Virus record (IMG/VR): IMGVR_UViG_3300028840_003924
Span: 72,133-136,132 of that record
Source of the DNA: a virus
Length of the DNA stretch: 64,000 nucleotides
Reading direction: 5' to 3' (one strand)
Shown one piece after another: positions 24,089 to 63,763 of the stretch. The translations under genes were made by a program, and so were the position numbers. The notes below the pieces were generated by a model, which was not told the origin of the DNA, did no database searches, and saw nothing but the letters and a program-made list of their open reading frames with translations. Each line of letters starts with the position of its first letter. The first letter of the stretch is position 1.

Positions 24089-24121
24089 ACCACCTCCTGC
24101 GGCTTAGCCGCAGGAGGTGGT
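24089..24121. repeat. CCACC hairpin element, intergenic between convergent genes
   Basis: ACCACCTCCTGCGGC-TTA-GCCGCAGGAGGTGGT, perfect 15-bp stem. Confidence 0.9.
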
Positions 24122-24199
24122 GGTAGCTACAACCTAATATAGGAGGGTTGTGTGTGTGCTCTGACTCTTCTCTGGCGAGAAACAGCCAGCATCATTGTA

Positions 24200-24562
24200 T
24201 CATTCATCGTCTTCTTCGACGCACAGACCTTTTACTGCCGAATAATCTACACAACCTCGTTTCCGGCCATCAGCCGAGAACCTATATGATTGATAGTCGG
24301 GTCCAAAGACAATAGGTCCACTGATGAACACTCGCTGACCGACCTCTAGGCCATGTTCTTTTGGAACACGAGGGCCAATGCCGAGTACATATGCCTCGTT
24401 AACACGAACTTCGGTTGTTCCTGGCAGGTCCAAGTTGGTGCCCATCGTCTCTTGCGCAGACAGCACCTCGACGTAGACATTCGTTCCCAGCGGGCTAACA
24501 TCGGCGATTTTGGGTACAGAACTAAGTCCACCACCGTTACCACCATAGATCAATTCTGACAT
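24200..24562 (-). CDS. groES: GroES-like co-chaperonin
   Basis: SPLGTNVYVEV...LDLPG...AYVLGIGP...LEVGQRVFI; AAGGAG RBS. Confidence 0.75.
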   Translation of the reverse strand: MSELIYGGNGGGLSSVPKIADVSPLGTNVYVEVLSAQETMGTNLDLPGTTEVRVNEAYVLGIGPRVPKEHGLEVGQRVFISGPIVFGPDYQSYRFSADGRKRGCVDYSAVKGLCVEEDDE

Positions 24563-24593
24563 AGTATTCTCCTTCTTTATCTAAGGAGAGTAA

Positions 24594-30895: not shown

Positions 30896-30939
30896 GAAAC
30901 CCACCACCCCGCACAGCGGGGTGGTGGGTTTCTTTTTTT
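30896..30939 (+). terminator. Rho-independent terminator, related to CCACC hairpin family
   Basis: GAAACCCACCACCCCGC-ACA-GCGGGGTGGTGGGTTTC followed by a T run. Confidence 0.85.
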
Positions 30940-33633: not shown

Positions 33634-33669
33634 GAAAAACCACCCGGCGAAAACGCCGGGTGGTTTTTC
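33634..33669. terminator. Bidirectional-type intrinsic terminator
   Basis: GAAAAACCACCCGGCG-AAAA-CGCCGGGTGGTTTTTC downstream of the 33697-34095 gene. Confidence 0.8.
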
Positions 33670-33696: not shown

Positions 33697-34095
33697 TCAC
33701 TTATTAACCACCGAAAGTATCTTTTTGGCCATAGCAAATGGTTCGACCGCTGGCTCCTCTGCCAGGATGCTCATCACATCGATAACTTCGGGGCAGTATT
33801 CGTCCATATCATGCTCATCCATGAAGCGAATTTTCTTGTTCAGGTCCACAAGCGACTCGCTGATTTCATCCCGTGCCTCTTCAAGCTGCTTTCTGGTCAC
33901 ACTGACCACTTGACAATCCTTTGCAAAGAGATTATTACCTTCCCAATCCTTATCTAGGGCTTTCGCTTTTAACGTATTGCCGTCATCTGAGGCATACGTA
34001 ACTTCGTACACCTTGCCCACAATGTAGCTGCTGCTATTGGAGTTCCTGATCGGGCGTACTAGGTTTCCGGGCTGAATTTTAACCTTCTGAAACAT
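33697..34095 (-). CDS. Hypothetical protein (SH3-like N-terminus plus coiled coil)
   Basis: AAGGAGG RBS before ATG 34095; IQPGNLVR...YIVGKVYEV. Confidence 0.65.
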   Translation of the reverse strand: MFQKVKIQPGNLVRPIRNSNSSSYIVGKVYEVTYASDDGNTLKAKALDKDWEGNNLFAKDCQVVSVTRKQLEEARDEISESLVDLNKKIRFMDEHDMDEYCPEVIDVMSILAEEPAVEPFAMAKKILSVVNK

Positions 34096-34149
34096 CGTCT
34101 TCCTCCTTATTCCTAGTATCGGTTTGCAGGGCCTCAAACTTTAGTGATA

Positions 34150-34178
34150 TTGCACCAGCGATCTTTTTTTCCTAAAAT
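34150..34178 (+). promoter_or_regulatory. Sigma70-type promoter
   Basis: TTGCAC-17 nt-TAAAAT upstream of ATG 34213. Confidence 0.55.
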
Positions 34179-34212
34179 GGGGCGTCAACCAAGCCCGCAG
34201 AAGGAGATTACC

Positions 34213-36594: not shown

Positions 36595-36625
36595 CGCCCA
36601 CCTGCCGCTTTGCGGCAGGTGGGCG
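36595..36625. repeat. CCACC hairpin element, intergenic
   Basis: CGCCCACCTGCCGC-TTT-GCGGCAGGTGGGCG, 14-bp perfect stem 8 nt before ATG 36634. Confidence 0.8.
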
Positions 36626-42000: not shown

Positions 42001-43119
42001 GATGTGTGCCCAGCATGTGAAGCTCAGGCAAAGGAGTGGGAAGAGAAGAAAGAGAAGAGTACACCACCACCGAAGCAGGAGGAGGCGGGCCAACCCATGG
42101 TTGGTGACAGTCCGCTGTTCTTGCTTGCCAGAGACCCAACCAACTTGAAGAAGACGAAGTGCGAATTTGGCGATTTGAATTGCTACGTCGAAGACGACTG
42201 CTTCCACAGGATGACCAGCTACCACCTTCCCGATGGCCGTTGCCATCGGGAAGATGGTGCGCCTGCATACAAGGCGTTTTACAGGGTCGGCTACGAGAAG
42301 GTTTCGACCCCACAAGGCGAACAACAATTCACTCTGGTTGTCCGATGGTACAAAGACGGCGTACCTCATCGGGAAGACGGGCCAGCCGCCATCTGGTATC
42401 TCCACGGCAAAGAGGTACACAGAGAATACTATCTGGAAAACTGTTGTCTGGAAAGGTTCACTTGGGAGGTGCGTCGATCACTAGGCCACAGAAGTGTGGC
42501 ATGCCATACAAATGATCGCTCGGAATGGCGGTTAGGAACTGCCGATGGACTGCTTCATCGCATTGAAGGGCCTGCTGTTGAATGGACTAACGGGCTGCAC
42601 GAGTGGTGGCTCTTTGGAGTCCATGTGGCCGTAAAAGATCACAAAGAGTGGGTGAAGCTCCTCGAATGCGAAGGGTCGCAGAAGATTAAAGAGAATCTCC
42701 CCGTTTACGTTAAACAAAACCCGGAGATCGACCAAAGGATACCAAGGGAACGGAAGGAAGTGGTGGACGAGTCAGTTGCCCACGGTTTCACGCCCGAAGA
42801 GATGAGACCTTACGTCGGCAAAGAAGTCGAAGTAAGAGAAGTCAGGAACAATAGGTGGTATCCTCGCACACTAGTCAAGATCGAGGGTGACAAGCCTCCA
42901 TTCGTCACCCCCGGAAACGCTCGTTGGTCATTCGCCCGACCGATCAAAGTGGTGGACGAATCCTTCATCGGAAGGAGAATCGAAGTGAGAAACGATCCCG
43001 ATGGTACGTGGTGGCTACGGGAACTTGTTTCAATCAACGCCAATGGGGAGTTTCTTTGCAAGGTGGATCAGGGTACTTACCCATGGAAGTTCGCTCGGCC
43101 CATCCAAGAGACATCCTAA
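39055..43119 (+). CDS. Large mosaic membrane protein: TM, about 10 IEVR/W-ARP modules, KOW-like and HRxDGPA repeats, Zn fingers
   Basis: 1354 aa; repeated IGKMIEVR...W..R.L...Y.C...W..ARP; GAGG RBS. Confidence 0.85.
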   Translation: MDATQFIAIAIIALLVWLLYKKRKAKRLVAKTDIPYPTSPPDPELDHLVEEFDKSFEKGMESCCQIEGMLKAAKKSGTPFVKTEPTVDESHIGKMIEVRGTMNPHDNQAKWRLRKLFEIVPEKDAPYGCENICASGETIYWCEARPIQEKKPEPPPTVGIAKDDEFPIGSRVIVDEPIADYRRRGKVTGTREGERAVRLDDNDSDHSKFYPVSRLELEMLPEGTPVKIDKGNKEDGPKESFWASFDGLTGKVRQSRELGCHIDMDGPNPPHPGAYLSRKHLRVISKPLKFPEVSVEECLMGHTSDPAYRKIKVATEVDRSFIGKMIEVRGIGENEVREWLQRKLKRIEDREQNRYVCENAVNPKIDSLWHEARPLTCDNEPILLTHKGDRGEVREWRLPGGAYHRTDGPALIRTYDKEQTFQLASRTPRKDIRYVREEVWFDNGKMHRKNAPAQIFYDGDKRIVYAAWWEGGEQTHDSLCRSDRVRVQQAHRAQREGTVKGIYEDNSILVECTDGSTAGEYRPIYSLINGKIDNPSYGSVDESFIGKWIDVRDTRSYEGTWQRRKLLAIDSDRSEHYYCLHPKGGTLTTNWPEARPASENKPTEKCPHCETLKRQADCKLCFGAAYLPAGPGPVREEVKEVEEVDESYVGKMIEVRALASKNWVTVADIGRMIEVRDYPDRPWQTRQLVDIRPASAYRYQCKDDKIDDGKRSWRYARRIKEKAPPGCLGPNTYQYYINKEVEASDDGQEWKVVVLTHYREDSDYPFIACRDHTKWRFARPECQTKCPQCGIAMCHRPGHECATCPQMDHCANHAEGCTSWEVVTEEQIGKMIEVRDHHTHDWNERELVEINKGQFRAYLCKKFGNPLSTAEWKFARLIKKEPPKGLIGKQHIGKMIEVRQGDGDVWERRKLLRFTDKDEYGQGGVRPYVCQVPAQKVVSRSEHCWIQARPIATGTPCSQAEPPAKKKPEHVCGLQGFGHSLNDVCPACEAQAKEWEEKKEKSTPPPKQEEAGQPMVGDSPLFLLARDPTNLKKTKCEFGDLNCYVEDDCFHRMTSYHLPDGRCHREDGAPAYKAFYRVGYEKVSTPQGEQQFTLVVRWYKDGVPHREDGPAAIWYLHGKEVHREYYLENCCLERFTWEVRRSLGHRSVACHTNDRSEWRLGTADGLLHRIEGPAVEWTNGLHEWWLFGVHVAVKDHKEWVKLLECEGSQKIKENLPVYVKQNPEIDQRIPRERKEVVDESVAHGFTPEEMRPYVGKEVEVREVRNNRWYPRTLVKIEGDKPPFVTPGNARWSFARPIKVVDESFIGRRIEVRNDPDGTWWLRELVSINANGEFLCKVDQGTYPWKFARPIQETS

Positions 43120-48135: not shown

Positions 48136-48530
48136 GCCAAACCACCACCACCGATTACCCGGATGACATCCGGGTAATCGGTGATAAGATCGCTGGCCTT
48201 ACATGCGCCGAGGCGCAAGAACTCAACGAGTACTTGAAGTACACCTACGGGATCGAACCACCGGCAAAGCCGACGCAATACCTCCCTGAAAAAGAAGAGG
48301 AGGTGGAACCCGACAAGCCCGACAGCTTCAAGGTTGTTCTCCAAAGCTACGGAGACAACAAGGTCAGCGTCATCAAGGTGATCCGTCAGATCACCGGCTT
48401 GGCGCTGAAAGCTGCCAGGGACTTCGTGAATGAGGTTCCCCAAGTAGTCAAGGAAGACTTGTCGAAACCAGACGCCGAAGCCCTCAAAGAACAACTGGAG
48501 GTAGCTGGGGGTGTCGTTACATTAGAATAA
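48132..48530 (+). CDS. rplL: 50S ribosomal protein bL12 (L7/L12), phage-encoded
   Basis: FKVVL...KVSVIKVIRQITGLALKAARDFV...VKEDLSKPDAEALKEQLEVAGGVVTL. Confidence 0.93.
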   Translation: MSQTTTTDYPDDIRVIGDKIAGLTCAEAQELNEYLKYTYGIEPPAKPTQYLPEKEEEVEPDKPDSFKVVLQSYGDNKVSVIKVIRQITGLALKAARDFVNEVPQVVKEDLSKPDAEALKEQLEVAGGVVTLE

Positions 48531-50130: not shown

Positions 50131-50724
50131 ATGAAACGTAGACACTTCATACTCTCCAGCGTCGTGACAGCCATCGCCACCACCTTCGGCTGGAAGCCGA
50201 AGGTGGTGGCTGAAGAACCCGAACAACCTCGCCCTAGAAAGGGCGATATATGGAAATATCCAGAGACTGGCGATCTGATTGTGGTGGATAAAGTACGTCT
50301 CAAACTGGTTTTCTACCACTTCAAAAAACAACCAGACATCAAACGGGCCATGGCACCCTGGCAGTTTCGTGATACGTATGTATTCGTTAAACGGAAAGGC
50401 TCTGAAGATAACCCAAAGGGTCTGCCCGTTGTCCTGTTCGACGAGAAGGGGAAGATCATCAACGGAGAGGAACTGTTCAAAGACATCAACTGGACTGTCA
50501 AGCCGCCATTTTTTCATTCCGCCACTCGTCGGCGGCGTGCTTGGGTTCCCCAATTAACCCCTATGGCTCAAACTCGCTGCGCCGGGGCTTGTGTTTTCTG
50601 GGGTGAGGTCATGATGGAAAACTATTCGTGGGGACAAATCGATGTTGACCCCACGGAACATTCCGTGGTAGCCTACCGTTACGCAAGCCAAGAAGGTGTG
50701 ACTAACCACGTCACTATCAACTAA
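50131..50724 (+). CDS. Tat-signal protein, paralog 1
   Basis: MKRRHFILSS; NPKGLPVVLF. Confidence 0.7.
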   Translation: MKRRHFILSSVVTAIATTFGWKPKVVAEEPEQPRPRKGDIWKYPETGDLIVVDKVRLKLVFYHFKKQPDIKRAMAPWQFRDTYVFVKRKGSEDNPKGLPVVLFDEKGKIINGEELFKDINWTVKPPFFHSATRRRRAWVPQLTPMAQTRCAGACVFWGEVMMENYSWGQIDVDPTEHSVVAYRYASQEGVTNHVTIN

Positions 50725-51270: not shown

Positions 51271-51272
51271 CC

Positions 51273-51665: not shown

Positions 51666-51706
51666 GGGCACTTTTTTTCTGTTTCTCTGTTTAAGGAGTG
51701 GGTGTG

Positions 51707-52056: not shown

Positions 52057-52063
52057 GTGAACC

Positions 52064-52528
52064 ATGAAACGTAGAGTTTTTCTCGCAGGGGCAGCAGGGG
52101 CAGCCGTCACCACCACCTTGGGCGTCCCGCCCAAGGTGGTGGCTCGTGAAGCTCCCCAAAAGGAACCTGAAAACCCAGAAGGCTTAGCCGTCATCAAGTT
52201 CTCCAAAGACGGCAAGAAAGTCATCAACCTCAAAGAGATCATCGAACATGGAGGAACCCGAGATAACTTCTTCATGAGTCGAGATGATAAGATCGCTGGG
52301 CCAAACGGAATCTTTCTTGAGTGTGCCGTGTGGCTTCGCAAAAAAGATGCCATGGCGGACTGCTGCCGCCCCTACAATACACCCGGCCTGTATTGGGGTA
52401 AGGTAAAGATGCATTACGCTATCGCTGACGATTACGATGTTAGCTTCTATCTCCAAACAACCGAGGAGTCGCACGCAATCGACTTGCCAAATTTTGACAC
52501 GGACTTCGAGGTCGACGAGGTTCGGTAG
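52064..52528 (+). CDS. Tat-signal protein, paralog 3
   Basis: MKRRVFLAGAAGAA; NPEGLAVIKF. Confidence 0.7.
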   Translation: MKRRVFLAGAAGAAVTTTLGVPPKVVAREAPQKEPENPEGLAVIKFSKDGKKVINLKEIIEHGGTRDNFFMSRDDKIAGPNGIFLECAVWLRKKDAMADCCRPYNTPGLYWGKVKMHYAIADDYDVSFYLQTTEESHAIDLPNFDTDFEVDEVR

Positions 52529-52540
52529 TGTTAGGTCGAA

Positions 52541-52575
52541 CACCACCTCCCGCCGCATAGCGGCGGGAGGTGGTG
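52541..52575. repeat. CCACC hairpin element, intergenic
   Basis: CACCACCTCCCGCCGC-ATA-GCGGCGGGAGGTGGTG, perfect 16-bp stem 10 nt before ATG 52586. Confidence 0.9.
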
Positions 52576-52585
52576 GGAGGGAACT

Positions 52586-52912
52586 ATGAAATTCAGTATT
52601 AGCGTGATGGGCACTGACGAGTTAGCGCCACAACAACTCGGTGCCGAAGACTTGTTCACAGCAGATGCGGGCGTGTACGCCTCTGAGCAGTACGAGGACT
52701 ACTATGTGGTAGTCTTTCCCAACTGGAATACAGAAGAGGCTCCGGAGGCCGTGCTCGCTTTGAATATGGTGGGGCAGGAAGTTAAGGCTTTCGATCCCGG
52801 CGAGTTTGGTAACAACGACACCTTTGTAAGGGTCAACGCCGAGGTGAAGGTTGCCATCCAACTCAGCAAGATTGAACTGCCAGAGATCGAGTTTGAAGGA
52901 ATCATGGAATGA
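52586..52912 (+). CDS. Acidic hypothetical protein
   Basis: GGAGG RBS; coupled to methyltransferase. Confidence 0.65.
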   Translation: MKFSISVMGTDELAPQQLGAEDLFTADAGVYASEQYEDYYVVVFPNWNTEEAPEAVLALNMVGQEVKAFDPGEFGNNDTFVRVNAEVKVAIQLSKIELPEIEFEGIME

Positions 52913-53565: not shown

Positions 53566-53623
53566 TCTTGACTGAAGGCGAGCTAATGATTCTAATAGGG
53601 GAAAACTATGGATAGGTCTTCCG

Positions 53624-54352
53624 ATGCCGCCACCATACATCCTCTATCTCGACAACAAAGAGCAACAGGATCGCATTCCGACCCTGTACGGGACGATAGA
53701 GGCGTTGTGGAGTCATTTGGAGACGGTGAATGAGGGTTACCGCCGCAACTTCGGGAATGCCAACAACGGCAAAGCATGGATCGTAACGGACGCTTGTGCA
53801 AAAGGCACCCAAAAAGTTGACAAGACCGCCGCATATCGGATACTCCAAAAGCAAGGAACGATCAACCTATACTGCGAATGTACGAGTTGTGGACTTTTTT
53901 ATACGGGAAGTGCCCGGAGGGAGGACGTTGGCCGTTTAGTTCCTAAATCCCACAAGATCGACAAGCTCGTGATGCGGACGAAGAATGTGGAGCAACAATT
54001 CCAACGGATGCTCGACCATGAGTCTACCTCAACTTGGGAACCCCATGAAGTCAACCCTGTTCAAGCCCTTGCTGCTGCCGAGGAACGCATCTTTGGGTTC
54101 AACCTTTACCATGCACTTCAAGCAAGTTCGTTGGGGTTAGAGGAGATTGAAGAAAAGGCAGGCTTTGCTCCTGATACGTTGCTGGCGATGATGAGTGCCA
54201 TCAAACCACTCAGACCGACAGGTGCCCAGATCGACAAACTAGCCAGGATACTGAAAGTCAAACCCGAAGAGCTTTGGTACGATGCGGTGGCGGTTTACCT
54301 CGATGCGACCAACAGTTGGGACAAGTATATTAAAATGGAGGACACGCCATGA
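53624..54352 (+). CDS. Protein with C-terminal XRE-like HTH
   Basis: LGLEEIEEKAGF...PTGAQIDKLARILKVKPEELW. Confidence 0.65.
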   Translation: MPPPYILYLDNKEQQDRIPTLYGTIEALWSHLETVNEGYRRNFGNANNGKAWIVTDACAKGTQKVDKTAAYRILQKQGTINLYCECTSCGLFYTGSARREDVGRLVPKSHKIDKLVMRTKNVEQQFQRMLDHESTSTWEPHEVNPVQALAAAEERIFGFNLYHALQASSLGLEEIEEKAGFAPDTLLAMMSAIKPLRPTGAQIDKLARILKVKPEELWYDAVAVYLDATNSWDKYIKMEDTP

Positions 54353-55284
54353 GAGTCTTAAGCTTCTCTGTCGTGATCGGTGGAACCAAGTGTAATGCTG
54401 CTTGTCCCTTCTGCGTCTCTCGCATGACGGCACCACCACGCCGGGCGCTGAACCCCAACTGGTTCGCTTTCAAGAAAGCTGTCCAAGCCGCTCTCGATGC
54501 CGGGGCCTGGGGAGTCATGTTTACCGGTAAGGGCGAACCGACCGAGTACCCCGACTTAATAACACAATATCTTCGGATGCTGGGAACGATAGGAATCCAT
54601 CTGGGGAAGGTTCGCCGCACGATACCGAACACGATCTATTCGTTATTCGGAAAGCCGCAGTTCGATTTTCTTCCCTTCGCCTTCGCCGATCTGCAAACCA
54701 ATGGAATCAACATCCCGCAACAGAGAGGTTTATTAAAGAAATGGCATCGACTTGGCCTGAGTACGGTTTGCATTTCTCTTGCTCACTGGAACGATGCCGA
54801 GAATTGGTCCATGATGCGACACCACACCGTTAAGCCGATGAACATCTGGCAGAACGTTGGAATCTTGAAGGACCTCGGCTATCTGACTCGTTTGAACTTT
54901 ACTGCGATGCGTCGGGGTGTCGAAACCATTGAAGATGTAGAGATCGTGATAGCCCTGTGCCGCAAGTACGGCGTAGACCAACTCACCATTCGAGATGTTG
55001 CCACACCGGATGATAAGGATAGTCGCAATCCACAAGTAACGCAGTACGTGAAGGATCATCGAATCAACTTGGAACCGGAACTGCGTGAGTACATGAAGGA
55101 AGCTGGTTCACCAGCAGTCATGCTTCTTTCGCATGGAGCAACGGTACACTATCACCATGGCATCAGCTTCTCTGTTAATAACTGCCTTACCACCTCCCAA
55201 AACCCTGATGAACTTCGGCAACTCATTTCGTGGCCCGATGGGGCCTTAACGCCCGACTGGAAATACGACCTTCGACTTTTATGA
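54349..55284 (+). CDS. Radical SAM protein
   Basis: CNAACPFC (CxxxCxxC), FTGKGEPT, LQTNG; GGAGG RBS. Confidence 0.9.
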   Translation: MRVLSFSVVIGGTKCNAACPFCVSRMTAPPRRALNPNWFAFKKAVQAALDAGAWGVMFTGKGEPTEYPDLITQYLRMLGTIGIHLGKVRRTIPNTIYSLFGKPQFDFLPFAFADLQTNGINIPQQRGLLKKWHRLGLSTVCISLAHWNDAENWSMMRHHTVKPMNIWQNVGILKDLGYLTRLNFTAMRRGVETIEDVEIVIALCRKYGVDQLTIRDVATPDDKDSRNPQVTQYVKDHRINLEPELREYMKEAGSPAVMLLSHGATVHYHHGISFSVNNCLTTSQNPDELRQLISWPDGALTPDWKYDLRLL

Positions 55285-55322
55285 AGATTTGATCACGTTT
55301 AGTAACCCTTCCTCCCGTACCC

Positions 55323-55496
55323 TCATTTGCGAAGCAAATTCGGGGGTCGCATTCGCTCCTCCATAATAAAGCCTATATCCGTAATAAGCCGCATATTCCC
55401 CGTAAAAACTGGGGTTGGTGGATTTCCGAGCCTCTGGTATACTCTGTCTTTGTCCTGAGTAAGGCCCGTGTTCCAAGAGTCCTTCAGGACACCCAT
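55323..55496 (-). CDS. Possible small protein (57 aa)
   Basis: MGVLKDSWNTGLTQDKDRVYQRLGNPPTP...; fills an otherwise empty gap, no homology recognised. Confidence 0.3.
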   Translation of the reverse strand: MGVLKDSWNTGLTQDKDRVYQRLGNPPTPVFTGNMRLITDIGFIMEERMRPPNLLRK

Positions 55497-55525
55497 ACAC
55501 TCGACCTGTACTAAACCAAAAAAAA

Positions 55526-55722
55526 CCGGTGAGGAGCCGGGAGCACCAGTGTCGTTTGTAGCGGCACGACGAGTGTATGCATGGACCCCAAAGTATTATT
55601 GCTTTGGGGTCCATCAGTTTGGGTATTTCCCGCCGTTTAATGCCCTGCGGTGGGATTACATGGCCGGTCCTTTAACGTTAGACGACGTGGAGGTACCGGC
55701 CTTTTCTATGCGCCGAAACTGA
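55526..55722 (+). ncRNA. Candidate structured non-coding RNA
   Basis: Six stems in about 200 nt; imperfect pairs are G-U on the plus strand. Confidence 0.45.
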
Positions 55723-55828
55723 CGTTGACCCAAATCGGTGAAAATGGGATCATATAGTATCGTCAACCCCAAGGGCATGAGTATTGTCGATATCCTTCTT
55801 TGCACCAAACCAACATAAGGATAGAGCC

Positions 55829-58540
55829 ATGGACTTTCTACTCATTGCCGCCGCCGCTGGTGGCTTCCTTTTCTTCGTCGAAGTATTGCTCAAGATCAAC
55901 AACCCGAAGCCAGAAGAGAAGAGGGAACAGAAGAAGGTCGAGACCAACGTAGAGGTCCAAAAACCCGCCGAACATATTGAAGTGGAGTTGACAGTCGAGC
56001 CCGACAAAGGACTGTCGCCGCATAAGATGACGACGTACCTGCACAAAGAAGTCGAGGTAAGTTCAGACGGAACAAACTGGGAGAAACGCCAACTGCTTGC
56101 CATCGTTACCAATGAAGGGTTCGACTATCCGTTCATCACCAATAATAAGCTTGTCAAAGGGGCCACGACTAGTTGGATATACGCTCGCCCGCTTACGGAA
56201 GAAGAACCACCCAAAGAAGAACCACCCAAAGAAGAACCACCCAAAGAAGAACCACCCAAAGAAGAACCACCCAAAGAAGAACCACCCAAAGAAGAACACC
56301 CCATCAAGAAAGGCATGTGGGTTCGTGTTGATCATGGCTGCCCACATTGCGAAGGCAAAATCAAGGAAGTGAAAGAGACCGTTGGCAAAAGCAAAAGCGT
56401 AGTCAAGATCGAATGTAACGGCAAAACAACCACCATTCAGACAAGCAGCCTGACACCCCTTCCCTTCCAACCGGGTGACCGTGTTGTCTTCGATGTAGGC
56501 GACAAGAAGCTAAGGGCCGATCTCGTAAACCAAAAAGGAACAGTACTCCTTCCTCCCGCCAGCGGAAATTTGGTGCGAGTCATACTCGACAAGCCCTACA
56601 AAACCGCCACTGAGTTCCCCTACTACAAAACCGCCACCGAGTTCATGACCGGAGCGTGCAACTTGCGGCGTATAGAAGACGACCAACCACCACCTTCTGC
56701 GGCACAGCCGCAGAAGGTGGTTAATGCCGCAGATGTCGACAATGCCACCAAAGACCGAGAAGTGCCCAACGAACTCCCAAAGGGAACGAGGGTGAAGATC
56801 ACCAACAGATCGTTCCCAGACTTCTTTGGTAAAGAGGGTACGATCAAAGGTCTTGCCGAAAACCGCTCGGGGTCAGAACCACAGCTAATGTATGCCCTCG
56901 ATATCGACGGAAAATATGCCCAGTTCTACCGGTCGTCATTTGAAGTTCTACCCGACGAAGACGACCCCTTTCAACCCGGTGTGTGGGTGAGGATCAACAA
57001 CGCCAACAATCCCGACAACATCGGTATGAACGCCAAGATTGTACAAACTTACAATCGTGACGTTGAAGTGGAACTTGGCTGCAAGCACCACACCTTCAGC
57101 AAAAACAAGCTTAGCGTCCTCCCGTTCCAACCGGGCGATTGTGTCACCATCACCGAAGGCCAGTATACAGGAAAAGAAGGAACGATACTAGAGCCGCTGA
57201 CGACCCAGGATTGGGTCACCGTGGAAGTGCAGTCCGCCAAAACGCACAAAATCCGGACCAAATTCGACAGACTGAAACACGCAGAAGACCCAACCACCAC
57301 AGATAACAAGAACGCCCCACCACCACCACCTCCTGCTCCACCGGAGCAGGAGGTGGTGTTCAAAGAAGGAGACCGAGTGGTCATCACTCACACAGCAAAG
57401 AGGACCGGTCTCGTAGGAATGACGGGAACGGTCGCCGTCCTCACCTGTGGTGGTGACGCCTCGGTAGTGACAGACCAACCCGTCGACGGTCATGCTCGCT
57501 GGACCGTCCCCGTAGACGTTCTCGAACACTACAAGGTCAAAGTGGGAGATCGGGTTGCTATCCAAAACCACTCGGCCCTCTACAATGACGCAGAGGGTGT
57601 AGTAGAGAACACCACAAGCGACACGGTGGGCATAAGATTGGATCATCCCGTCGCCACTGCCCGCTACGTCAGCGTTGTCCCAAAGAGCGTCCGACCTGCC
57701 CCGGAGTTCTGCGAAGGCATGTTGGTGGAGATCGTCAACGCCCACAATAAAGACAACATCGGTCTTATCAGAAAAGTTGTCGGTGAAACCCCCAAGGACG
57801 TGATACTCGACTGGAATGGTGGTAACCGCAACTTTGGGAAGGTGTTCGTCCGTCGCTGCCGGTTCCAAATCAACGACCGGGTCAGGATTGTAAGCAGCAT
57901 CAACGGAGACCTCGTCGGCAAACATGGAAAGGTCACCAAAACCACAGACAATAAAGGTCTCATCTGGGTAGCCTTGTATGAGCCAGTCAACTGCCAGACC
58001 AACTGGACGTTGAACATAAATAACCTGGAGCTAGCCAACTTCCGAGTAGGCGACAAAGTGCGGGTAGTCACTTGGCCGATATCCAAAAGAATCGGACAGA
58101 CTGGGAACATCGTTGAAATCGGCGAAAACTCTGCCACGGTTCGTCTCGACGACCAGACCGGTAACATCCAAGGATCGCTGAAGAACTTCCGACACGTTCA
58201 GGCACCCGACTTCCGCAAGGAGATGTGGGTGAAGGTGATGCAGGCCAAGAACAAGAGCATGATCGGGAAGGTCTACCAGATCGTAGTGGTCAGGGACTAC
58301 GACCTCGGTATACGATTGCCGAGTGGTAATATCGGCTTCTTCCTGTTCTCCGCAGTCAAACCACTACCCTTCCAGCCAAAAGACGAAGTCCTCGTCGATA
58401 ATGGCGGACCCCTTCAGGGTTACACGGTAATCATAGAGCATCCCGTCGATCTCACAGGTGAGTGCTTCCAAGTCCACGCACCCTGGCACAGCACCTTCAA
58501 AAAGTGGCACCTTAAAACGAAAGACCTCAGACACACATAA
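55829..58540 (+). CDS. Mosaic membrane protein: TM, 1 IEVR/W-ARP module, about 12 KOW/SH3-like repeats
   Basis: MDFLLIAAAAGGFLFFV; FQPGDRVV, FKEGDRVV, FRVGDKVR units. Confidence 0.85.
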   Translation: MDFLLIAAAAGGFLFFVEVLLKINNPKPEEKREQKKVETNVEVQKPAEHIEVELTVEPDKGLSPHKMTTYLHKEVEVSSDGTNWEKRQLLAIVTNEGFDYPFITNNKLVKGATTSWIYARPLTEEEPPKEEPPKEEPPKEEPPKEEPPKEEPPKEEHPIKKGMWVRVDHGCPHCEGKIKEVKETVGKSKSVVKIECNGKTTTIQTSSLTPLPFQPGDRVVFDVGDKKLRADLVNQKGTVLLPPASGNLVRVILDKPYKTATEFPYYKTATEFMTGACNLRRIEDDQPPPSAAQPQKVVNAADVDNATKDREVPNELPKGTRVKITNRSFPDFFGKEGTIKGLAENRSGSEPQLMYALDIDGKYAQFYRSSFEVLPDEDDPFQPGVWVRINNANNPDNIGMNAKIVQTYNRDVEVELGCKHHTFSKNKLSVLPFQPGDCVTITEGQYTGKEGTILEPLTTQDWVTVEVQSAKTHKIRTKFDRLKHAEDPTTTDNKNAPPPPPPAPPEQEVVFKEGDRVVITHTAKRTGLVGMTGTVAVLTCGGDASVVTDQPVDGHARWTVPVDVLEHYKVKVGDRVAIQNHSALYNDAEGVVENTTSDTVGIRLDHPVATARYVSVVPKSVRPAPEFCEGMLVEIVNAHNKDNIGLIRKVVGETPKDVILDWNGGNRNFGKVFVRRCRFQINDRVRIVSSINGDLVGKHGKVTKTTDNKGLIWVALYEPVNCQTNWTLNINNLELANFRVGDKVRVVTWPISKRIGQTGNIVEIGENSATVRLDDQTGNIQGSLKNFRHVQAPDFRKEMWVKVMQAKNKSMIGKVYQIVVVRDYDLGIRLPSGNIGFFLFSAVKPLPFQPKDEVLVDNGGPLQGYTVIIEHPVDLTGECFQVHAPWHSTFKKWHLKTKDLRHT
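56201..56297 (+). repeat. Coding tandem repeat (GAAGAACCACCCAAA) x6 plus partial, encoding EEPPK
   Basis: Six perfect 15-bp units from 56201 to 56290. Confidence 0.97.
56689..56721. repeat. CCACC hairpin element, in-frame inside CDS
   Basis: ACCACCTTCTGCGGC-ACA-GCCGCAGAAGGTGGT, read as PPPSAAQPQKVV. Confidence 0.9.
57324..57358. repeat. CCACC hairpin element, in-frame inside CDS
   Basis: CACCACCTCCTGCTCC-ACC-GGAGCAGGAGGTGGTG, read as PPPPAPPEQEVV. Confidence 0.9.
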
Positions 58541-58556
58541 CCCGGAGAAAAGAGCC

Positions 58557-61500
58557 ATGTCCGGAATAGACCTTTGCTGCCTGCTCATGCTGGCAATCTT
58601 CCTCGTTGTCCTGTATACCGCCAAGCGCCCCAAACCAGAACCAAAAAAGAAACTGGTAAGGGATGATTACATGGACACTCAGACGGGGATGCGGCAAATA
58701 TCCTACCTCTGCGACGGAAAGCTCCATCGCACGGACGGGCCCGCACGTACACGCTATTATGGCAAGGACCATGACATCATGGGAATGAAGGCAAGGAGTG
58801 CCGATTACTACTACGAGGGCGGTACGTGCTTCTGCATTCTTTATAAGGACTTCAAAAGCGAAATCCTCTACGCCGACTTCCCAATGGACAAGGAGAAAAT
58901 CCCTCCCCGACCCAAGAGCGATGCACTGGCCACCATCGTCGGCGAATACCGACGATGGTGGTATGTTGTCGAATGGACCAAGAAGGAACTGGAGGCGACG
59001 AAGGAGAAACTGGAGAAGAGCGAAGAGAATGTCGCATCGCTTAGTGCCCAACTGACGAACAAAGAGCCCGACCCGTTCCGCAAAGGGGATCGGGTAAAGA
59101 TCATGAAAGTGGGCCACGTTGGGGAGAATGCGTATCTGGGAAAGACCGGCACCGTGATCAACCAGAATTTAACTGGGCTGGTTAATATCAAACTAGATGA
59201 AGAGGTCCACGGAAGTGACAAAACCGGCTTCTATGCCCATCGATTGAAATTGATCGAGAACACACCACCTCCCGCTTCGAGGAAGCGGGAGGTGGTGGTG
59301 TTGGGTGATTACAAAATAGGTGACCGGGTGGAGATCGTGAGTTCCCTCGTCAGTAAGTTTAGAGGAAAGAAAGGGGAAGTGAAAAGGATTTCATCAGCAG
59401 GTGACTATCTCGTCATCTGGTTGGATGAGCCGGTCGGGCAGGAGCAGAGAGTATTCTACCAACCCGACAAGGTAAAGAAGGTTTTCAAGGTTGGCGACCG
59501 GGTGAAGATCATCCAACCCAAGGACACCTCGAAAGGGCCGACATCAGCAGTGTATCTTGGAAGGACGGGAACGGTCGACGCATTGTTGCTGGATGATATG
59601 ATTAGAATGCGTTTCGACGAGAAGATGAACGATAGCTCTACTGTCGATCTGTTTGCTATCCGGTTTGAACTGATAGATGAAAATCCCCGTGCTACGGCAG
59701 AGGACAGCCCACCACCTCCGTCTGCGACGGAGGTGGTGGGCGGGTTTAAGGTGGGGGACCGTGTTCGGCTGAAAGGTGGTTCGGTTCTGGGTACGATCAT
59801 CGATTTTGGTATCAGGGGAACGGGTTATGTTCTTGTGGAGTGGAATAATGATGGCCCTCCGACTTATTGTCCCGCCGAACACTTGATGGAGGAGAACGGC
59901 TATTCCGGCTGCCCTGTTGAAGGTGGGGATGGCTTCAAGGTGGGTGACCGTGCCCAGATCAAGAAGGATTGCCCAAGTAAAAATGCAGGTCAGTACGGCA
60001 AAATCACGAAGATGCGAAAGTTGCATGGTGTCACCCAGGTGATTGTGGAATTGGAGCAGGGGCTGGTTCGGTCGACGCCCTCTAAGGACGACAAAGACGA
60101 CTGGCTCTGGGTTGGGCATTTGGTCCACGCCGAGAAGAGCGAAAGTTTGGACGAGCCAAAGGGCGAGTTTAAGGTTGGTGAGGAGGTTACACAGTTTCAC
60201 AAGCGTCTCAACGAGCTTAACGAAAAAGTGGAGCGGGTTCAAAAGCAGCTAAAGGATGCCGCTTCGGGAGGTCCTGCGCCTACGGAGCAAATGCCCGAGG
60301 TTGACGAGAGCTATATCGGCTATCCGGTGTTGGTATCGTTGGATAAGAAGAAGTGGTTCGCCAGAACACTTACGGAACTCCGAAAAGGGAGGACCCACCC
60401 ATATAAGACTGAACGATCCGACAATCAGAAGCCCGATGATATCGGCAAGTGGAGATATGCCCAACCTTTGTATGCGGCACCTGAGGCCGTGTTGAAATGG
60501 CAGGACGAAGAAGCTCAGAAGATGTTCGAGCAGCAGTTCCATGAACTTCTAGCAAAGGCCGTGAAGAACAACGATGGTAAGGTAGACGAGCGTTACATTG
60601 GTCTGCCCATCGAAGTCTCCATGGACGAGAAGAAGTGGTTCATGCGGACGTTGGTCGAGTGCGATGGGGGTTACTACGGTGTTCGACATACTTGGAGCCA
60701 GCAAACAGAGCACTATCCTCATGCTCGGCCTCTTGGATACGCCCAGCCGGTCTGCGTGGTGAAAGAAGCAGAACAGAAGCCAGAAGACGAAAAGCTCAGT
60801 TGCGAATCTGAGCGATCTTCCGGGTGCGAACAAAAGACCCACCGGCGTGGACTTCTTATCCATCGCACAAGTGGACCGGCTATAACGATCACTATGGATA
60901 AAGGGAAGTCTAGGACCCACTTCAAGCCAAACTTCGAGTGGGACTACTACGAGGAGTGGGTTCTTCACGGGTCCAGGCATCGAGACGACGGCCCGGCTCG
61001 TGTTTGGATGCGAGACGGTAAAGTGGTTTACCAAGAGTACTTCGCCAACGGTGGAAAGTTCACGCCCGCCGAATGGGAGAACCGGGACTACGCCCCTGCC
61101 GAACCGCCAAAGTCCGAATCCACTTCGACAACGATCCCAACCAATCCGACCCTTCCTCCTCTGGCGATTGGCCAGCGTTTGGATGATAGATGTGTCGGTC
61201 TGTACGTCGAGGTTCGGAACAAGTCGAAGAATGATTACTGGCATCGTCGCAAGTATTCACATACGGATATGGACGGTGACAAACCTCGTCACTGGTGTAC
61301 CCATGAAGATCAAGGGAAGCTCTATTGGTGGGAGGAAGCTAGACTTTCCGCCGTTCAATCGCCCCCAACTCGGTGCAGCGAAGGGCGGAAGGGCGGCGGT
61401 AAGTGTACACACAACGCTTGTAGCGAAGGTTGTGTACCATCCAATGTACAACAGTTTGCGAACAGTTGCACGAATGGTTCCGTCGAGTTTTCAAGCGATT

Positions 61501-61619
61501 GTGTGAATTGGCACTGGGGGACACTCAAGGGATACACTCCAAATAATCCCTATCCGTTCCAAGATACGGAAGACCGTTATTATGCATTCATCCGGAGTGC
61601 GAAGAAGAAAAAGGACTGA
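58557..61619 (+). CDS. Mosaic membrane protein: TM, HRxDGPA repeats, about 5 KOW-like and 4 IEVR/W-ARP modules
   Basis: Start at ATG 58557 (GGAG upstream); FKVGDRV units; VDESYIG...WRYAQP. Confidence 0.85.
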   Translation: MSGIDLCCLLMLAIFLVVLYTAKRPKPEPKKKLVRDDYMDTQTGMRQISYLCDGKLHRTDGPARTRYYGKDHDIMGMKARSADYYYEGGTCFCILYKDFKSEILYADFPMDKEKIPPRPKSDALATIVGEYRRWWYVVEWTKKELEATKEKLEKSEENVASLSAQLTNKEPDPFRKGDRVKIMKVGHVGENAYLGKTGTVINQNLTGLVNIKLDEEVHGSDKTGFYAHRLKLIENTPPPASRKREVVVLGDYKIGDRVEIVSSLVSKFRGKKGEVKRISSAGDYLVIWLDEPVGQEQRVFYQPDKVKKVFKVGDRVKIIQPKDTSKGPTSAVYLGRTGTVDALLLDDMIRMRFDEKMNDSSTVDLFAIRFELIDENPRATAEDSPPPPSATEVVGGFKVGDRVRLKGGSVLGTIIDFGIRGTGYVLVEWNNDGPPTYCPAEHLMEENGYSGCPVEGGDGFKVGDRAQIKKDCPSKNAGQYGKITKMRKLHGVTQVIVELEQGLVRSTPSKDDKDDWLWVGHLVHAEKSESLDEPKGEFKVGEEVTQFHKRLNELNEKVERVQKQLKDAASGGPAPTEQMPEVDESYIGYPVLVSLDKKKWFARTLTELRKGRTHPYKTERSDNQKPDDIGKWRYAQPLYAAPEAVLKWQDEEAQKMFEQQFHELLAKAVKNNDGKVDERYIGLPIEVSMDEKKWFMRTLVECDGGYYGVRHTWSQQTEHYPHARPLGYAQPVCVVKEAEQKPEDEKLSCESERSSGCEQKTHRRGLLIHRTSGPAITITMDKGKSRTHFKPNFEWDYYEEWVLHGSRHRDDGPARVWMRDGKVVYQEYFANGGKFTPAEWENRDYAPAEPPKSESTSTTIPTNPTLPPLAIGQRLDDRCVGLYVEVRNKSKNDYWHRRKYSHTDMDGDKPRHWCTHEDQGKLYWWEEARLSAVQSPPTRCSEGRKGGGKCTHNACSEGCVPSNVQQFANSCTNGSVEFSSDCVNWHWGTLKGYTPNNPYPFQDTEDRYYAFIRSAKKKKD
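59263..59297. repeat. CCACC hairpin element, in-frame inside CDS
   Basis: CACCACCTCCCGCTTC-GAG-GAAGCGGGAGGTGGTG, read as PPPASRKREVV. Confidence 0.9.
59707..59741. repeat. CCACC hairpin element, in-frame inside CDS
   Basis: GCCCACCACCTCCGTC-TGC-GACGGAGGTGGTGGGC, read as PPPPSATEVV. Confidence 0.9.
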
Positions 61620-61651
61620 GGCCCGTCGTTATTAACAAAGGAGACGTAGTT

Positions 61652-63763
61652 GTGGAACTACTCATACCACTTTGTATCTTCGTGACTTCCATCGCAATCC
61701 TTACCATTTCTGGGATGGTGAGTTATTATCGGGCCTTCCACCCAAGAGACCCGAAGGGGATGGTGTGGTGCCACAGCGAGAAAGATAGAGTTGTGCATCG
61801 CAAGGGCACCCTGCTCCATCGCAAGAAAGGTCCCGCCATTATCTTCGATTCCGGTCGACAGGAATGGTGGTTCGAGGGGAAGCTCCATAACGAAACAGGC
61901 CCAGCCATCATTGGTGATGACGGCGAAGTCTCTTATTACATCAATGGAAAGCAGTTGACGGAAGCAGAGTTCTTTACGGATGATCGACTAACCAAGAAAG
62001 TAGAAAGCGGCACAACAACATACTTCTGGAAAGGAATGAGGCACCGTATTAACGGACCTGCCGTAATCTATTCTAATGGAGAGGTCTGTTGGTATCGATT
62101 TGGTTGGCGTGACCGGGAAGACGGTCCTGCTGTCATTAAACCTTCGGGCACCAAGAAATGGTACAAGCATAATAAGTATCATCGTGAAGATGGCCCCGCA
62201 ATCGAATGGGCGGACGGAAGCACCGAGTACTACCTGCACGGCGTGAATTACACAGAAGGTGCTTACGTGAAGATGATCGCCGAACTGAAAAAATCCAGAG
62301 AAAAGCTTACCACCACCTCCTCGGCTGACGCCGAGTCGGTGGGTTCTTGGGACTTCCGCATTGAGCATTACACCAACAGCGGTGGGTCTGATACGCAGTG
62401 CGATCTCGAAACCGCTATGAGGAATGTGGGCAAGACTTCTGTCGTTGCCAAAAGTAAGCAGACGGGTGAAGACACGCCAGTGATGGATATTCGATATTCC
62501 CTAAGGGATTATGCGAGCAGAGGCTTCCTTCAATCCTCCCCTGCCGATGCGGCTTTTCTAGGTAGCCTTTCTTCAGAGGGCGTGAATACGATGCAGAAGC
62601 TCTTCGATGACGAAGAGATTACGTACCCGTATGTCATGCTGTTCTTCGACAAGTTAGGGGTGGTGCCACCTATAGACTTTACTGCTGCTGTCATTGAAGA
62701 GCCCTGCGGTGCTAAAAAGAAAATATTCCGTAACTGTGACAAGACAGTCATCCAGTATCAGAACTCTATCGGCCAGTGGCATCGTGATGGGGGACCAGCG
62801 GAGACTATCCTTCACCATGAAAACCCAGTGCTTGCCAAGGTTGGAAGTGAGCACATCAGGTATGACCGCTACGAAGCCTTCTGGCAAAATGGGAGGAAGC
62901 ATCATGTTCGTGGCCCGGCTGTTCTTTGGTACAAAGGTGATACAGTCGTAGCTAGAGAGTACCACCTGAACGGCGAGCGGATGTCACATTATTTGTGGCG
63001 GCAGAAGCTGAGTGTGAGGTCGGATGATGTCGAAATCCCCGAGGACGAACCTTCCAAGGGTGACGAGGCCACCGAAGAGCACATCAACCAACCGATTGAC
63101 ACTGTACGGGTTTATGCTCGGCCAGTTTCCACTTGGATGTGCAAGTTATACCACGCTGACAAGCAGGGGGCTGTGCTTTCGTCGGTTGACAACGCTTACC
63201 GCACGACTGTCCAAATCAAGCTCGGATGCCTTCGTGTCAATCTTTTCGTCATCGTGTACCACGGGGATTATGCGAACATTGGAGAGGTGGCCGAGAAGGG
63301 GTTCTTCCAAGAACTAACGAAGGAGAACTATTCGACAATCCGCAAGGCTCTTTACGACGACTATATCGATATGCGCATACTCGATGAGGCATTTGAAAGA
63401 GCGGGCATTCCTCTGCCAACTGACGAAACTCCTGCCCGCCTTGAGTGGGTGCATCCTAAGCACGCAGTAACGGGGAAGCCGATCAAGCGGCAGAACAGGA
63501 TGTCGATGCTCGTGTTCATCCATCGCTCCGGAAAGAGGGAGGACCTCATCGAGATTGCATGGAAGAGCGAGCACGATGCGTATGTGATCGACACTCACGG
63601 TACGATGGCAACCTACGAGTCCCTCACTCCCGAAGACCTCGACTGTGCCTGTATGACGTTGGATGCCGAGACTGGTATGGATGCCGAACCTTTGATTCGG
63701 GTTGCGTTTGATCGCAAATACTGCCAGTTGCCAAAGGGTTGGCGGTCGGGTCCCGAGACGTAG
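61652..63763 (+). CDS. Mosaic membrane protein: TM and about 7 HRxDGPA repeats
   Basis: AAGGAG RBS, GTG start; HREDGPA-type repeats. Confidence 0.85.
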   Translation: MELLIPLCIFVTSIAILTISGMVSYYRAFHPRDPKGMVWCHSEKDRVVHRKGTLLHRKKGPAIIFDSGRQEWWFEGKLHNETGPAIIGDDGEVSYYINGKQLTEAEFFTDDRLTKKVESGTTTYFWKGMRHRINGPAVIYSNGEVCWYRFGWRDREDGPAVIKPSGTKKWYKHNKYHREDGPAIEWADGSTEYYLHGVNYTEGAYVKMIAELKKSREKLTTTSSADAESVGSWDFRIEHYTNSGGSDTQCDLETAMRNVGKTSVVAKSKQTGEDTPVMDIRYSLRDYASRGFLQSSPADAAFLGSLSSEGVNTMQKLFDDEEITYPYVMLFFDKLGVVPPIDFTAAVIEEPCGAKKKIFRNCDKTVIQYQNSIGQWHRDGGPAETILHHENPVLAKVGSEHIRYDRYEAFWQNGRKHHVRGPAVLWYKGDTVVAREYHLNGERMSHYLWRQKLSVRSDDVEIPEDEPSKGDEATEEHINQPIDTVRVYARPVSTWMCKLYHADKQGAVLSSVDNAYRTTVQIKLGCLRVNLFVIVYHGDYANIGEVAEKGFFQELTKENYSTIRKALYDDYIDMRILDEAFERAGIPLPTDETPARLEWVHPKHAVTGKPIKRQNRMSMLVFIHRSGKREDLIEIAWKSEHDAYVIDTHGTMATYESLTPEDLDCACMTLDAETGMDAEPLIRVAFDRKYCQLPKGWRSGPET
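62313..62342. repeat. Degenerate CCACC hairpin element inside CDS
   Basis: CCACCTCCTCGGC-TGAC-GCCGAGTCGGTGG, two mismatches, 4-nt loop, read in a different frame (TTSSADAESV). Confidence 0.55.

Follow-up and report, generated by a model that had tools for sequence, protein, structure and literature searches.

Perfect CCACC/GGTGG palindromes after stop codons and within protein linkers of a huge T4-like phage

What are the perfect CCACC...GGTGG hairpins that recur, between genes and inside them, along a 64,000-nt stretch of viral DNA, and how did they come to be there? The stretch, referred to here as the window, comprises bases 72,133-136,132, that is the final 64 kb, of the 136,132-bp virus record IMGVR_UViG_3300028840_003924; positions are those of the window unless given as contig positions. 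To our knowledge, perfect palindromes of 30-40 nt within protein-coding genes are very rare. A first-pass annotation had described eight such hairpins in the window, together with a decayed ninth copy, as an element not known from phages, and full-text literature searches likewise brought up no in-frame hairpin family described in phage. The explanation favoured here, to which we would give a probability of about 0.45, is that these are hairpins which punctuate gene ends and function at the level of RNA, and that the copies inside genes may have been written in place and kept perfect by foldback copying.

CheckV puts the completeness of the record, which is given as linear, at 27%. The closest known relative is LR756511.1, an uncultured phage of 595 kb, whose major capsid protein (MCP) shares 75% identity with the one encoded here; the identity of the latter to T4-like capsid proteins is about 29-31%. 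The block of structural genes keeps its synteny with LR756511.1, where 51 of the 153 gene calls find a match and most genes at window 24-64 kb have no counterpart; the 1020-aa protein of gene 58557-61619 is also recorded on a 339,821-bp contig. This capsid similarity, the synteny and the long contig show the record to be part of a huge T4-like phage. Assembly did not create the hairpins, because Logan contigs of two sequencing runs (X1 and X2), which are possibly the source of the same DNA, span 50301-56228 and 56268-64000 with 0 differences; the hairpin at 52541 is contained in an error-free contig of these runs. Contigs of run X3 covered scattered pieces of the record only.

Across the record, 32 perfect hairpins have a stem of at least 10 bp, 31 of at least 11 bp, 30 of at least 12 bp and 28 of at least 13 bp. 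Stem GC lies between 0.62 and 0.87, and among the 30 hairpins of at least 12 bp the effective stem measures 14-16 bp in 21, with a loop of 3 nt in 17 and of 4 nt in 11. Block-shuffled contigs (n = 10) held 0-1 perfect hairpins at the 11-bp threshold, against 31 in the real one. Codon-shuffled controls, which the first-pass annotation had proposed as a check, separate just as clearly from the real genes: 17 perfect hairpins of at least 13 bp lie within gene calls, and synonymous-codon shuffles gave none in 29 of 30 cases and one in the other. The motif CCACCTYC occurs 26 times against 5.1 expected, a number reached in 0 of 100 shuffles. Because this excess and the hairpin counts lie far above the shuffles, a chance origin of the set is excluded; the pattern is statistically overwhelming and unusual, and it is its function that we infer. 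LR756511.1 has 34 perfect hairpins of at least 13 bp in 595 kb, most of them ordinary A-run/T-run terminators, and only 7 are inside gene calls, or about 1.2 in-gene palindromes per 100 kb compared with about 14 in this phage. The density is roughly tenfold higher here, and the in-gene palindromes belong to the same family as the hairpins at gene ends.

All eight perfect hairpins of the first-pass annotation were recovered, with stems of 14-17 bp and every loop closed by C-G, as were the decayed copy at 62313 (11 of 13 positions pair), the 31-nt CCACCT(C/T)C...G(G/A)AGGTGG core common to five copies and the 25-nt core common to two. The set proved larger than described: the window copies at 4978, 33634, 48149, 50176, 52110 and 58930 had been missed, along with non-family palindromes at 1315 and 23438 and 14 perfect hairpins (stem at least 10 bp) outside the window. 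The inner arms are as they had been listed. The statement that they always pair is partly circular, because perfect hairpins had been the selection criterion, yet the pairs are bimodal in an independent test. When all CCACC...GGTGG pairs lying 21-45 nt apart are taken (n = 48), 19 rows, from 14 distinct loci, have every position paired, one row has one mismatch and another (62313) two; the rest have three or more unpaired positions, being mostly shifted registers of the same hairpins and otherwise essentially unpaired. Perfect pairing runs through 4-10 variable inner positions, with 0 G-T wobbles among the paired loci. A tail of decay is nearly absent, with 14 perfect loci to one decayed and, genome-wide, about 8 imperfect hairpins to 30 perfect ones. 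Eleven perfect palindromes, some of them in primase, L12-like and fibre genes, are unrelated in sequence but alike in geometry.

The CCACC/GGTGG family was delimited with a covariance model (CM), built on an RNAalifold structure of 14 pairs from an alignment of 21 CCACC-type copies, of which this phage supplied 13 and a second contig, described below, 8. The model scan, which had been suggested together with the first description of the hairpins, found 16 loci at E<=0.001 and three more at E<=0.05 in this phage, giving 19 family copies of which 15 are in the window, and 11 loci in the second contig; 3 of the 16, the three weaker loci and 3 of the 11 lay outside the training set. Scores are nearly equal on both strands. 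On all 595,163 bp of LR756511.1 nothing was found at E<=0.1 (best E 0.75), and the window had 0 matches to Rfam at gathering score. Element length is 31-39 nt, and the encoded peptides change with the reading frame. Inner stem and loop differ in almost every copy, leaving a shared sequence of about 10 nt per arm. As had been proposed, this is a dispersed family set by structure and a short motif at the base of the stem, and not by conservation of a peptide. Pairwise comparison of the 120-nt flanks of the 19 copies revealed no right-flank similarity above the null and no repeated flank or duplication; left flanks exceeded the null in two pairs only, 50176/52110 and, weakly, 24089/48147.

The exact-arm pattern CACCACCTCC-N11-19-GGAGGTGGTG was searched in IMG/VR, in representative prokaryote genomes (one per species) and in metagenomes. 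It occurs in 16 IMG/VR contigs and in 107 stretches of the prokaryote genomes, which come from many phyla, each time as one copy per contig; it also occurs in at least 119 metagenome stretches, and among the matches listed only contig Ga0180438_10000628 has several copies. A variant, CCACCACCCC...GGGGTGGTGG, is found in 20 IMG/VR contigs, all singletons. No host-like genome rich in the motif is among the IMG/VR, representative prokaryote or listed metagenome matches, an unsampled host being still possible. At one unrelated metagenome locus (L248), about 1 kb of tandem AAAGGACCCCGGGGTCCTTT-type palindromes surrounds a single CACCACCTCC hairpin.

Contig Ga0180438_10000628 is 66.5 kb long, and the 28 kb of it that were analysed (L160 and L223) contain 13 perfect hairpins of at least 11 bp and the 11 CM matches, all at E<=0.001. 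It encodes a distant T4-like capsid protein with 27% identity to the MCP of this phage (E 2e-10), as well as a sigma-region-4 protein, a GP88/DUF7227 protein and a UvrD-like helicase; beyond the capsid, no similarity to the 136-kb record was detected. Its hairpins lie 5-13 nt past the stops of plus-strand open reading frames (ORFs), including the sigma-like, DUF7227 and UvrD-like ones, and five copies crowd a non-coding stretch of about 700 nt which also holds GGTTGTCTTAAAG-type repeats. The family therefore occurs in at least two T4-like phages that differ widely, and the closest relative with a sequence lacks it. The second kind of phage seems to be present in the same samples (X1, X2), because a contig there, deeper than this phage, carries a look-alike of hairpin 52541 and then runs into sequence with the GGTTGTCTTAAAG-type repeat. 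The non-coding region of the second contig (L223 7560-8400) has, besides its five family hairpins, both repeated GGTT(G/A)TCTTAAAG boxes and CTGTGCA-like repeats that follow one another at a period of about 11 nt, and resembles an origin or promoter cluster.

The intergenic copies follow a rule of position that was absent from the first-pass annotation. Nine of the 19 family copies are intergenic, and all nine start 0-27 nt past a stop codon, a rule that only 9.7% of the possible intergenic placements of a 33-nt element would obey. Five of the 16 convergent junctions carry a perfect hairpin, compared with 7 of the 103 tandem junctions and none of the 16 divergent ones, a distribution which is the signature of a 3'-end element. 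The 24089 hairpin follows the stop of gene 23294-24088(+) directly (0 nt), where two genes converge; that at 33634 lies 27 nt past the stop of the minus-strand gene 33697-34137, that at 36595 lies 26 nt past the stop of gene 35972-36568(+), and that at 52541 is 12 nt past the stop of 52064-52528 and 10 nt ahead of an ATG at 52586. The gene-end rule, together with the fixed stem length and a stem base shared by two phages, argues that the intergenic copies are functional, and the enrichment at convergent junctions fits stem-loops that can be used from either strand. The family consists of lineage-specific, perfect, GC-rich palindromes of fixed geometry (a stem of 15-16 bp with a CCACC/GGTGG base and a loop of 3-4 nt). 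We suggest that the intergenic copies most likely fold in the transcript, readable from either strand, and that the stem-loops would stop or attenuate transcription, or protect the 3' end of the mRNA, without needing a U-tract. If so, they would define how transcription is punctuated in a lineage of uncultured huge phages, and perhaps in its host.

The other ten copies are coding, and sit in linkers, N-terminal leaders or domain ends; the earlier observation that coding copies mark module or domain junctions is borne out. The 4978 hairpin encodes ATTAATGSGSG, an Ala/Thr/Gly/Ser linker of a tail/baseplate-like protein, and the 48149 palindrome sits before the dimerisation domain of an L7/L12-like protein. 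Two further hairpins lie in related leaders: that at 50176 encodes ATTFGWKPKVVA at the end of an MKRR... leader, and that at 52110 encodes TTTLGVPPKVV in a leader paralogous to it. Both MKRR... leaders may be read as signal-peptide-like. The four perfect coding copies first noticed (56689, 57324, 59263 and 59707) do read PPP...(E/K)VV, all in the same frame, and module cores of the type (F)K(V/E)GDRV follow 3-21 residues downstream; these modules give weak KOW/SH3 Pfam matches (E 0.002-0.008, below gathering cut-offs). Hairpins are present at 2 of about 12 module junctions in gene 55829-58540 and at 2 of about 6 in gene 58557-61619, which has one more earlier in the gene. The latter, at 58930, encodes ATIVGEYRRWW in an inter-domain stretch and was outside the CM training set, and the 62313 copy, the only clearly decayed one of the family, also lies in an inter-domain stretch. 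The features are collected in the table.

Table. Palindromes of the window and the two modular proteins that carry several of them (window positions; CM scores or E-values where given)
Feature	Position	Strand	Description
Non-family perfect palindrome	1315..1354		19 bp, loop TT; convergent gene junction
Family hairpin	4978..5010		15 bp, loop TGT; in frame in 975-aa gene 3814-6741(-); CM 42.7 bits, E 3e-8
Non-family perfect palindrome	23438..23476		18 bp, loop ATG; in frame, residues 49-61 of HAD-like gene 23294-24088(+)
Family hairpin	24089..24121		16-bp stem and 1-nt loop, equal to 15 bp and triloop; CM 51.6 bits
Family hairpin	30896..30932		17 bp; 27 nt after stop; CM E 2e-5
Weak family hairpin	33634..33669		16 bp, loop AAAA, A/T runs in stem; CM E 0.02
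Family hairpin	36595..36625		14 bp, loop TTT; CM E 1e-7
Imperfect ACCACCTTC-type hairpin	42221..42258		16 pairs, 1 mismatch; inside 1354-aa gene 39055-43119(+)
Perfect palindrome, borderline family member	48149..48183		17 bp; residues 6-18 of gene 48132-48530(+); CM E 0.046
Family hairpin	50176..50210		16 bp; in frame, residues 16-27 of gene 50131-50724(+); CM E 6e-7
Family hairpin	52110..52142		15 bp; residues 16-26 of gene 52064-52528(+); CM E 3e-5
Family hairpin	52541..52575		16 bp, loop ATA; CM 50.5 bits
Modular protein, ~903 aa	55829..58540	+	Hydrophobic N-terminus, EEPPK repeats, ~12 KOW/SH3-like modules
Family hairpin	56689..56721		15 bp; in frame in gene 55829-58540(+); encodes PPPSAAQPQKVV in linker; CM 48.5 bits
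Family hairpin	57324..57358		16 bp; in frame in gene 55829-58540(+); PPPPAPPEQEVV directly ahead of FKEGDRV module; CM 49.8 bits
Modular protein, 1020 aa	58557..61619	+	~6 KOW-like junctions
CCACCATCG-type hairpin	58930..58961		13 bp, 6-nt loop; in frame in gene 58557-61619(+); CM E 7e-4
Family hairpin	59263..59297		16 bp; in frame in gene 58557-61619(+); TPPPASRKREVV in linker ahead of YKIGDRV module; CM 46.1 bits
Family hairpin	59707..59741		16 bp; in frame in gene 58557-61619(+); SPPPPSATEVVG in linker ahead of FKVGDRV module; CM 43.4 bits
Decayed family copy	62313..62345		11/13 pairs; in frame in gene 61652-63763(+); CM E 0.013

Which level is conserved in the coding copies, peptide or nucleic acid? 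All six PPP/TT...VV coding copies use GTG GTG, with strings of CCA and ACC, despite a nearly flat codon usage in which GTG makes up 25% of Val codons. The leader stems at 50176 and 52110 differ by two double (compensatory) changes which keep the pairing and alter the peptide (F to L; WK/KP to VP/PP), and the nucleotide similarity of the two loci is confined to the left flank. This codon choice and the pairing-preserving, peptide-altering changes show that the structure of DNA or RNA is conserved rather than the peptide.

A signal in translation might be sought in such copies. An mRNA hairpin with its PPP could slow the ribosome at module boundaries and so aid folding or membrane targeting; alternatively, the 3' arm could initiate translation and the 5' arm mask it, the arms CACCTCC and GGAGGTG being what we take to be likenesses of the anti-Shine-Dalgarno (anti-SD) and Shine-Dalgarno (SD) sequences. 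The situation of the coding copies at module, leader or domain ends would suit this, and about half of the gene starts (58 of 115) have an SD-like motif upstream. The internal initiation raised by the first-pass annotation does not hold consistently, since an in-frame start at workable spacing follows only one of the four PPP...VV copies; other coding copies differ in frame and peptide (TT...KVV, ATTAA...GSGSG), and neither the intergenic copies nor the absence of G-U pairs would be explained. We consider a translational role improbable.

The first-pass annotation had also compared the hairpins with REP, attC and Rickettsia palindromes and proposed an insertion site. Four in-gene palindromes have homologs with which they can be compared, one of CCACC type (4978) and three non-family ones; the PPP...VV copies fall outside this comparison, their genes having no homologs. 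In the primase, the palindrome lies where the CHC2 zinc finger ends (residues 81-92), with a gap of at most one residue relative to the LR756511.1 ortholog; the peptide of its left arm is conserved (ALEIL versus AKEIL) and that of its right arm is not. In the L7/L12-like gene, the palindrome (residues 6-18) aligns without a gap to the LR756511.1 ortholog, and the conserved residues lie under the right arm. One fibre paralog, whose sequence VITGGRDNTASGDY fits the family motif at equal length, has 19 of 19 complementary positions where three well-aligned paralogs have 7-11 of 19, two longer paralogs not being comparable at the site. The linker at 4978 has the same length as the non-palindromic linkers of homologs P0002-P0004 (33-51% identity), with no indel, and the linker residues of these homologs could not encode the palindrome in the 4978 register. 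None of the four palindromes is an insertion; they take the place of other sequence at equal length and do not add some 35 nt.

On the minus strand (contig 7073-18845, L001) lie six tandem paralogous fibre-like genes of about 600-680 aa, with long collagen-like Gly-X-Y runs and GG..N repeat blocks; a collagen-like fibre hairpin there, at contig 12131, is probably a by-product of GGNCCN repeats. The gene 48132-48530(+), whose product resembles ribosomal protein L7/L12, has a C-terminal domain recognised by Pfam at E 5e-25, and its LR756511.1 ortholog is 41% identical.

A miniature mobile palindromic element of REP/REPIN or Rickettsia palindromic element (RPE) type, with its transposase encoded by the host or in the 73% of the genome not covered, would account for a multi-copy, dispersed family common to two distantly related phage contigs, for similar hairpins that have different flanks on other contigs from the same runs, and for the observation that in gene 58557-61619 junctions with a hairpin have a linker of 12-20 aa and one hairpin-free junction has none. 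It is at odds with the four comparable sites, where length is unchanged, with the lack of conserved flanks or duplications, and with the variable inner stem and loop, which leave no copied sequence beyond the arms of about 10 nt; in addition, the matches from IMG/VR and representative prokaryote genomes have one copy per contig. No match to PF01797 (Y1/HUH), PF00589 (tyrosine recombinase) or PF14622 (RNase III) was found in the 136 kb, 27% of the genome, the PF01797 search having found its target in 6 of 14 named control genomes. The enzymes that the first-pass annotation had suggested looking for, a HUH/RAYT or tyrosine recombinase, are thus not found in these 136 kb, and with four non-insertions and unshared flanks the REP/RPE/attC reading is unsupported. 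We rate a mobile element as very improbable.

Set against the element classes themselves, the family is missing at least one of the features by which every class is defined. REP and REPIN elements are short, dispersed, GC-rich palindromes, often located after genes and able to stabilise upstream mRNA, but REPs are extragenic, imperfect and dependent on a Y1 transposase (RAYT), whereas here 10 of the 19 copies are coding, the stems are perfect and the available DNA has no Y1 gene. An integron attC site is an imperfect palindrome with extrahelical bases, found beside a tyrosine-recombinase integrase, in contrast to the perfect stems of this phage, in whose 136 kb PF00589 is unmatched. RPEs are likewise palindromic repeats in frame in unrelated protein genes, at tolerated positions, although they are insertions of about 150 bp with a conserved peptide (PMC10969869); the elements described here measure 33-35 nt, vary in their inner sequence and add no length where this can be examined.

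Equal-length replacement by a perfect inverted repeat of 16-19 bp is what intrastrand template switching produces. The four sites all show it, with one arm ancestral-looking in the primase (left) and in the L12-like gene (right). Template-switch, or quasi-palindrome, mutation products are reportedly known from classical work on T4 rII. We suggest that in-gene copies were written in place where change is tolerated, in linkers, leaders and domain ends, that one arm may have been copied from the other by foldback or template switching, a process which would also keep the arms perfectly complementary, and that the short Pro/Thr...Val/Gly linkers would be the resulting peptides. A perfect stem can be created by a template switch in one event, and stems can later be repaired in blocks, according to Monttinen and Loytynoja 2022 (PMC8794818). 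Their examples resemble ours in having perfect reverse-complement stems, unchanged length, one ancestral-looking arm and multi-base 'compensatory' change in a single step; what is described there, however, is single events in RNA genes or mutational hotspots, and not a genome-wide family of about 30 members with fixed geometry, a common stem base and a gene-end rule. Template switching would explain why G-T pairs and a decay tail are missing, and how 'covariation' could arise without many single compensatory steps. Should it hold, the phage would provide a natural example, unusually clean, in which template switching moulds regulatory hairpins as well as protein linkers, and a warning that 'covariation' in such stems need not imply selection at the RNA level.

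If foldback copying writes palindromes, need they do anything at all? They could be a neutral by-product of replication prone to foldback template switching, accumulating where tolerated, with the CCACC look of the coding copies derived from Pro/Thr/Gly-rich linkers. Origin in place with unchanged length and the common geometry of the 11 perfect palindromes of unrelated sequence agree with this, as does the fact that the excess of CCACCACC/GGTGGTGG lies mostly outside hairpins. This 8-mer is the most over-represented of the genome (57 occurrences against 4.1 expected, with a strand skew of 43:14). Hairpin 3' arms frequently read GGTGGTGG, and the extra copies of it are probably in Gly/Thr/Pro-rich coding sequence; a role of GGTGGTGG as a Chi site was set aside, most copies being outside hairpins. 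A neutral process would, however, be expected to leave decay, yet perfect copies far outnumber imperfect ones; it does not predict the strict after-stop rule of the intergenic copies, the same motif in the non-coding DNA of a distant phage, or a stem length so tightly peaked. A purely neutral origin seems doubtful to us.

The other possibility at the level of DNA is that the hairpins are recombination joints, their shared arms of 8-12 bp, or the extruded hairpins, serving as preferred crossover points at which gene cassettes or protein modules are swapped. They would then resemble the promoter-early stem-loops (PeSLs) of T4-type phages (Arbiol et al. 2010, PMC2839356; Comeau et al. 2014, PMC4122927), extended into reading frames. 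PeSLs, too, are repeated stem-loops of T4-like phages; they are concentrated between genes in variable regions, where the stem-loop acts as a terminator and shuffling of cassettes has been proposed, and recombination has been mapped inside one stem-loop (PMC2839356). PeSLs are intergenic, about 100 bp long, and combine the stem-loop with a conserved sigma70-type promoter, whereas the present elements share about 10 nt per arm, with essentially unshared flanks, no promoter and perfect stems of fixed length; the MCP is T4-like and 15 of the 19 copies are in the variable half, but 10 of the 19 are coding.

Several local observations bear on such joints. Most of the window copies lie in its right half, where few genes match LR756511.1, and perfect pairing on both strands suits a role in DNA. 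The leaders at 50131 and 52064 resemble each other through the hairpin and no further, which is a single case. Another single case is a minor strain (about 13x against 38x k-mer depth, in X1 and X2) that differs at 10 sites, 9 of them transitions, within the 84 nt of 50217-50300, directly 3' of hairpin 50176, and no other strain difference is listed in 50187-64000; the left edge of this patch is unbounded, however, since contigs break within the palindrome. The third concerns gene 3814-6741(-), which has a Tail_P2_I match: its LR756511.1 ortholog stops 40 codons after residue 537, just before the 4978 hairpin, so that a C-terminal domain of about 390 aa is missing there and present in the metagenomic homologs P0002-P0005. 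A gene fusion at a former gene-end hairpin was considered for this copy and rejected, the homologs being already fused with an ordinary linker; because P0003 and P0004 are two-domain proteins of this kind, the 4978 hairpin did not create the domain junction. Against joints in general stand the identity of only about 10 nt per arm, compared with about 100 bp in PeSLs, and the many module junctions that are free of hairpins (about 10 of 12 and about 4 of 6). These observations are weak hints, and recombination joints as the primary role are rather unlikely, although hairpins laid down for other reasons might be reused in this way. Were they joints, the PeSL idea would be widened from gene cassettes to protein modules. 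Less likely still is a bolder version, in which a clade of huge T4-like phages would actively write and maintain palindromes of fixed geometry as punctuation, through a hairpin-recognising factor or a property of its polymerase. The marks, placed at gene ends and at domain boundaries within genes, would be exchange joints for leaders, KOW-like modules and C-terminal domains, so that mosaic proteins are built by recombination running through reading frames.

Gene-end hairpins with foldback-written copies in genes remain the explanation that we prefer, although several observations weigh against it. The intergenic copies resemble intrinsic terminators as GC-rich hairpins a few nucleotides after a stop, enriched at convergent junctions, but the U-tract is missing in all but 1-3 copies, while LR756511.1 uses ordinary A-run/T-run terminators. 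A free T-run (TTTTTTT) follows only the 30896 copy, 1 of 19, as had been noted from the start, and most copies are for this reason not canonical intrinsic terminators; A/T runs within the stem occur at 33634 and in a non-family hairpin at contig 25663. The perfect coding copies are the weakest point, since a role at gene ends leaves the in-gene location of 10 of the 19 copies, and their perfect pairing, unexplained. Perfect Watson-Crick pairing without G-U, with nearly equal scores on both strands, would fit a role in DNA at least as well. Template switching, for its part, is suggested by end states only. The gene calls used throughout are uncurated codon-usage calls, and the DNA analysed, 136 kb, amounts to 27% of the genome. 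The family resembles a terminator in part of its behaviour and a PeSL in another part.

Relatives of the loci were sought more widely. A DNA-level search of GenBank phages with two large genes gave no match, as did tblastn with a 1053-aa ORF, of which LR756511.1 has no homolog; three window proteins found no related loci among viral contigs or metagenome contigs, and the sole match of the 1020-aa protein in a collection of 5.8 billion proteins, compared at near lengths, was itself. The large modular proteins at 55829-58540, 58557-61619, 61652-63763 and 39055-43119 have hydrophobic N-termini and repeated modules, comprising KOW/SH3-like units, seven EEPPK repeats and putative MORN-like 'GPA...W..G' repeats. 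Family membership of the hairpin at 42221..42258, in the last of these genes, is doubtful, its CM match being only at E 0.35-0.73. Between the hairpins at 33634 and 36595 lies a plus-strand gene (34144-35439) for an M16 (insulinase-type) peptidase, in which both Pfam domains are recognised at E 1e-27 and 4e-23.

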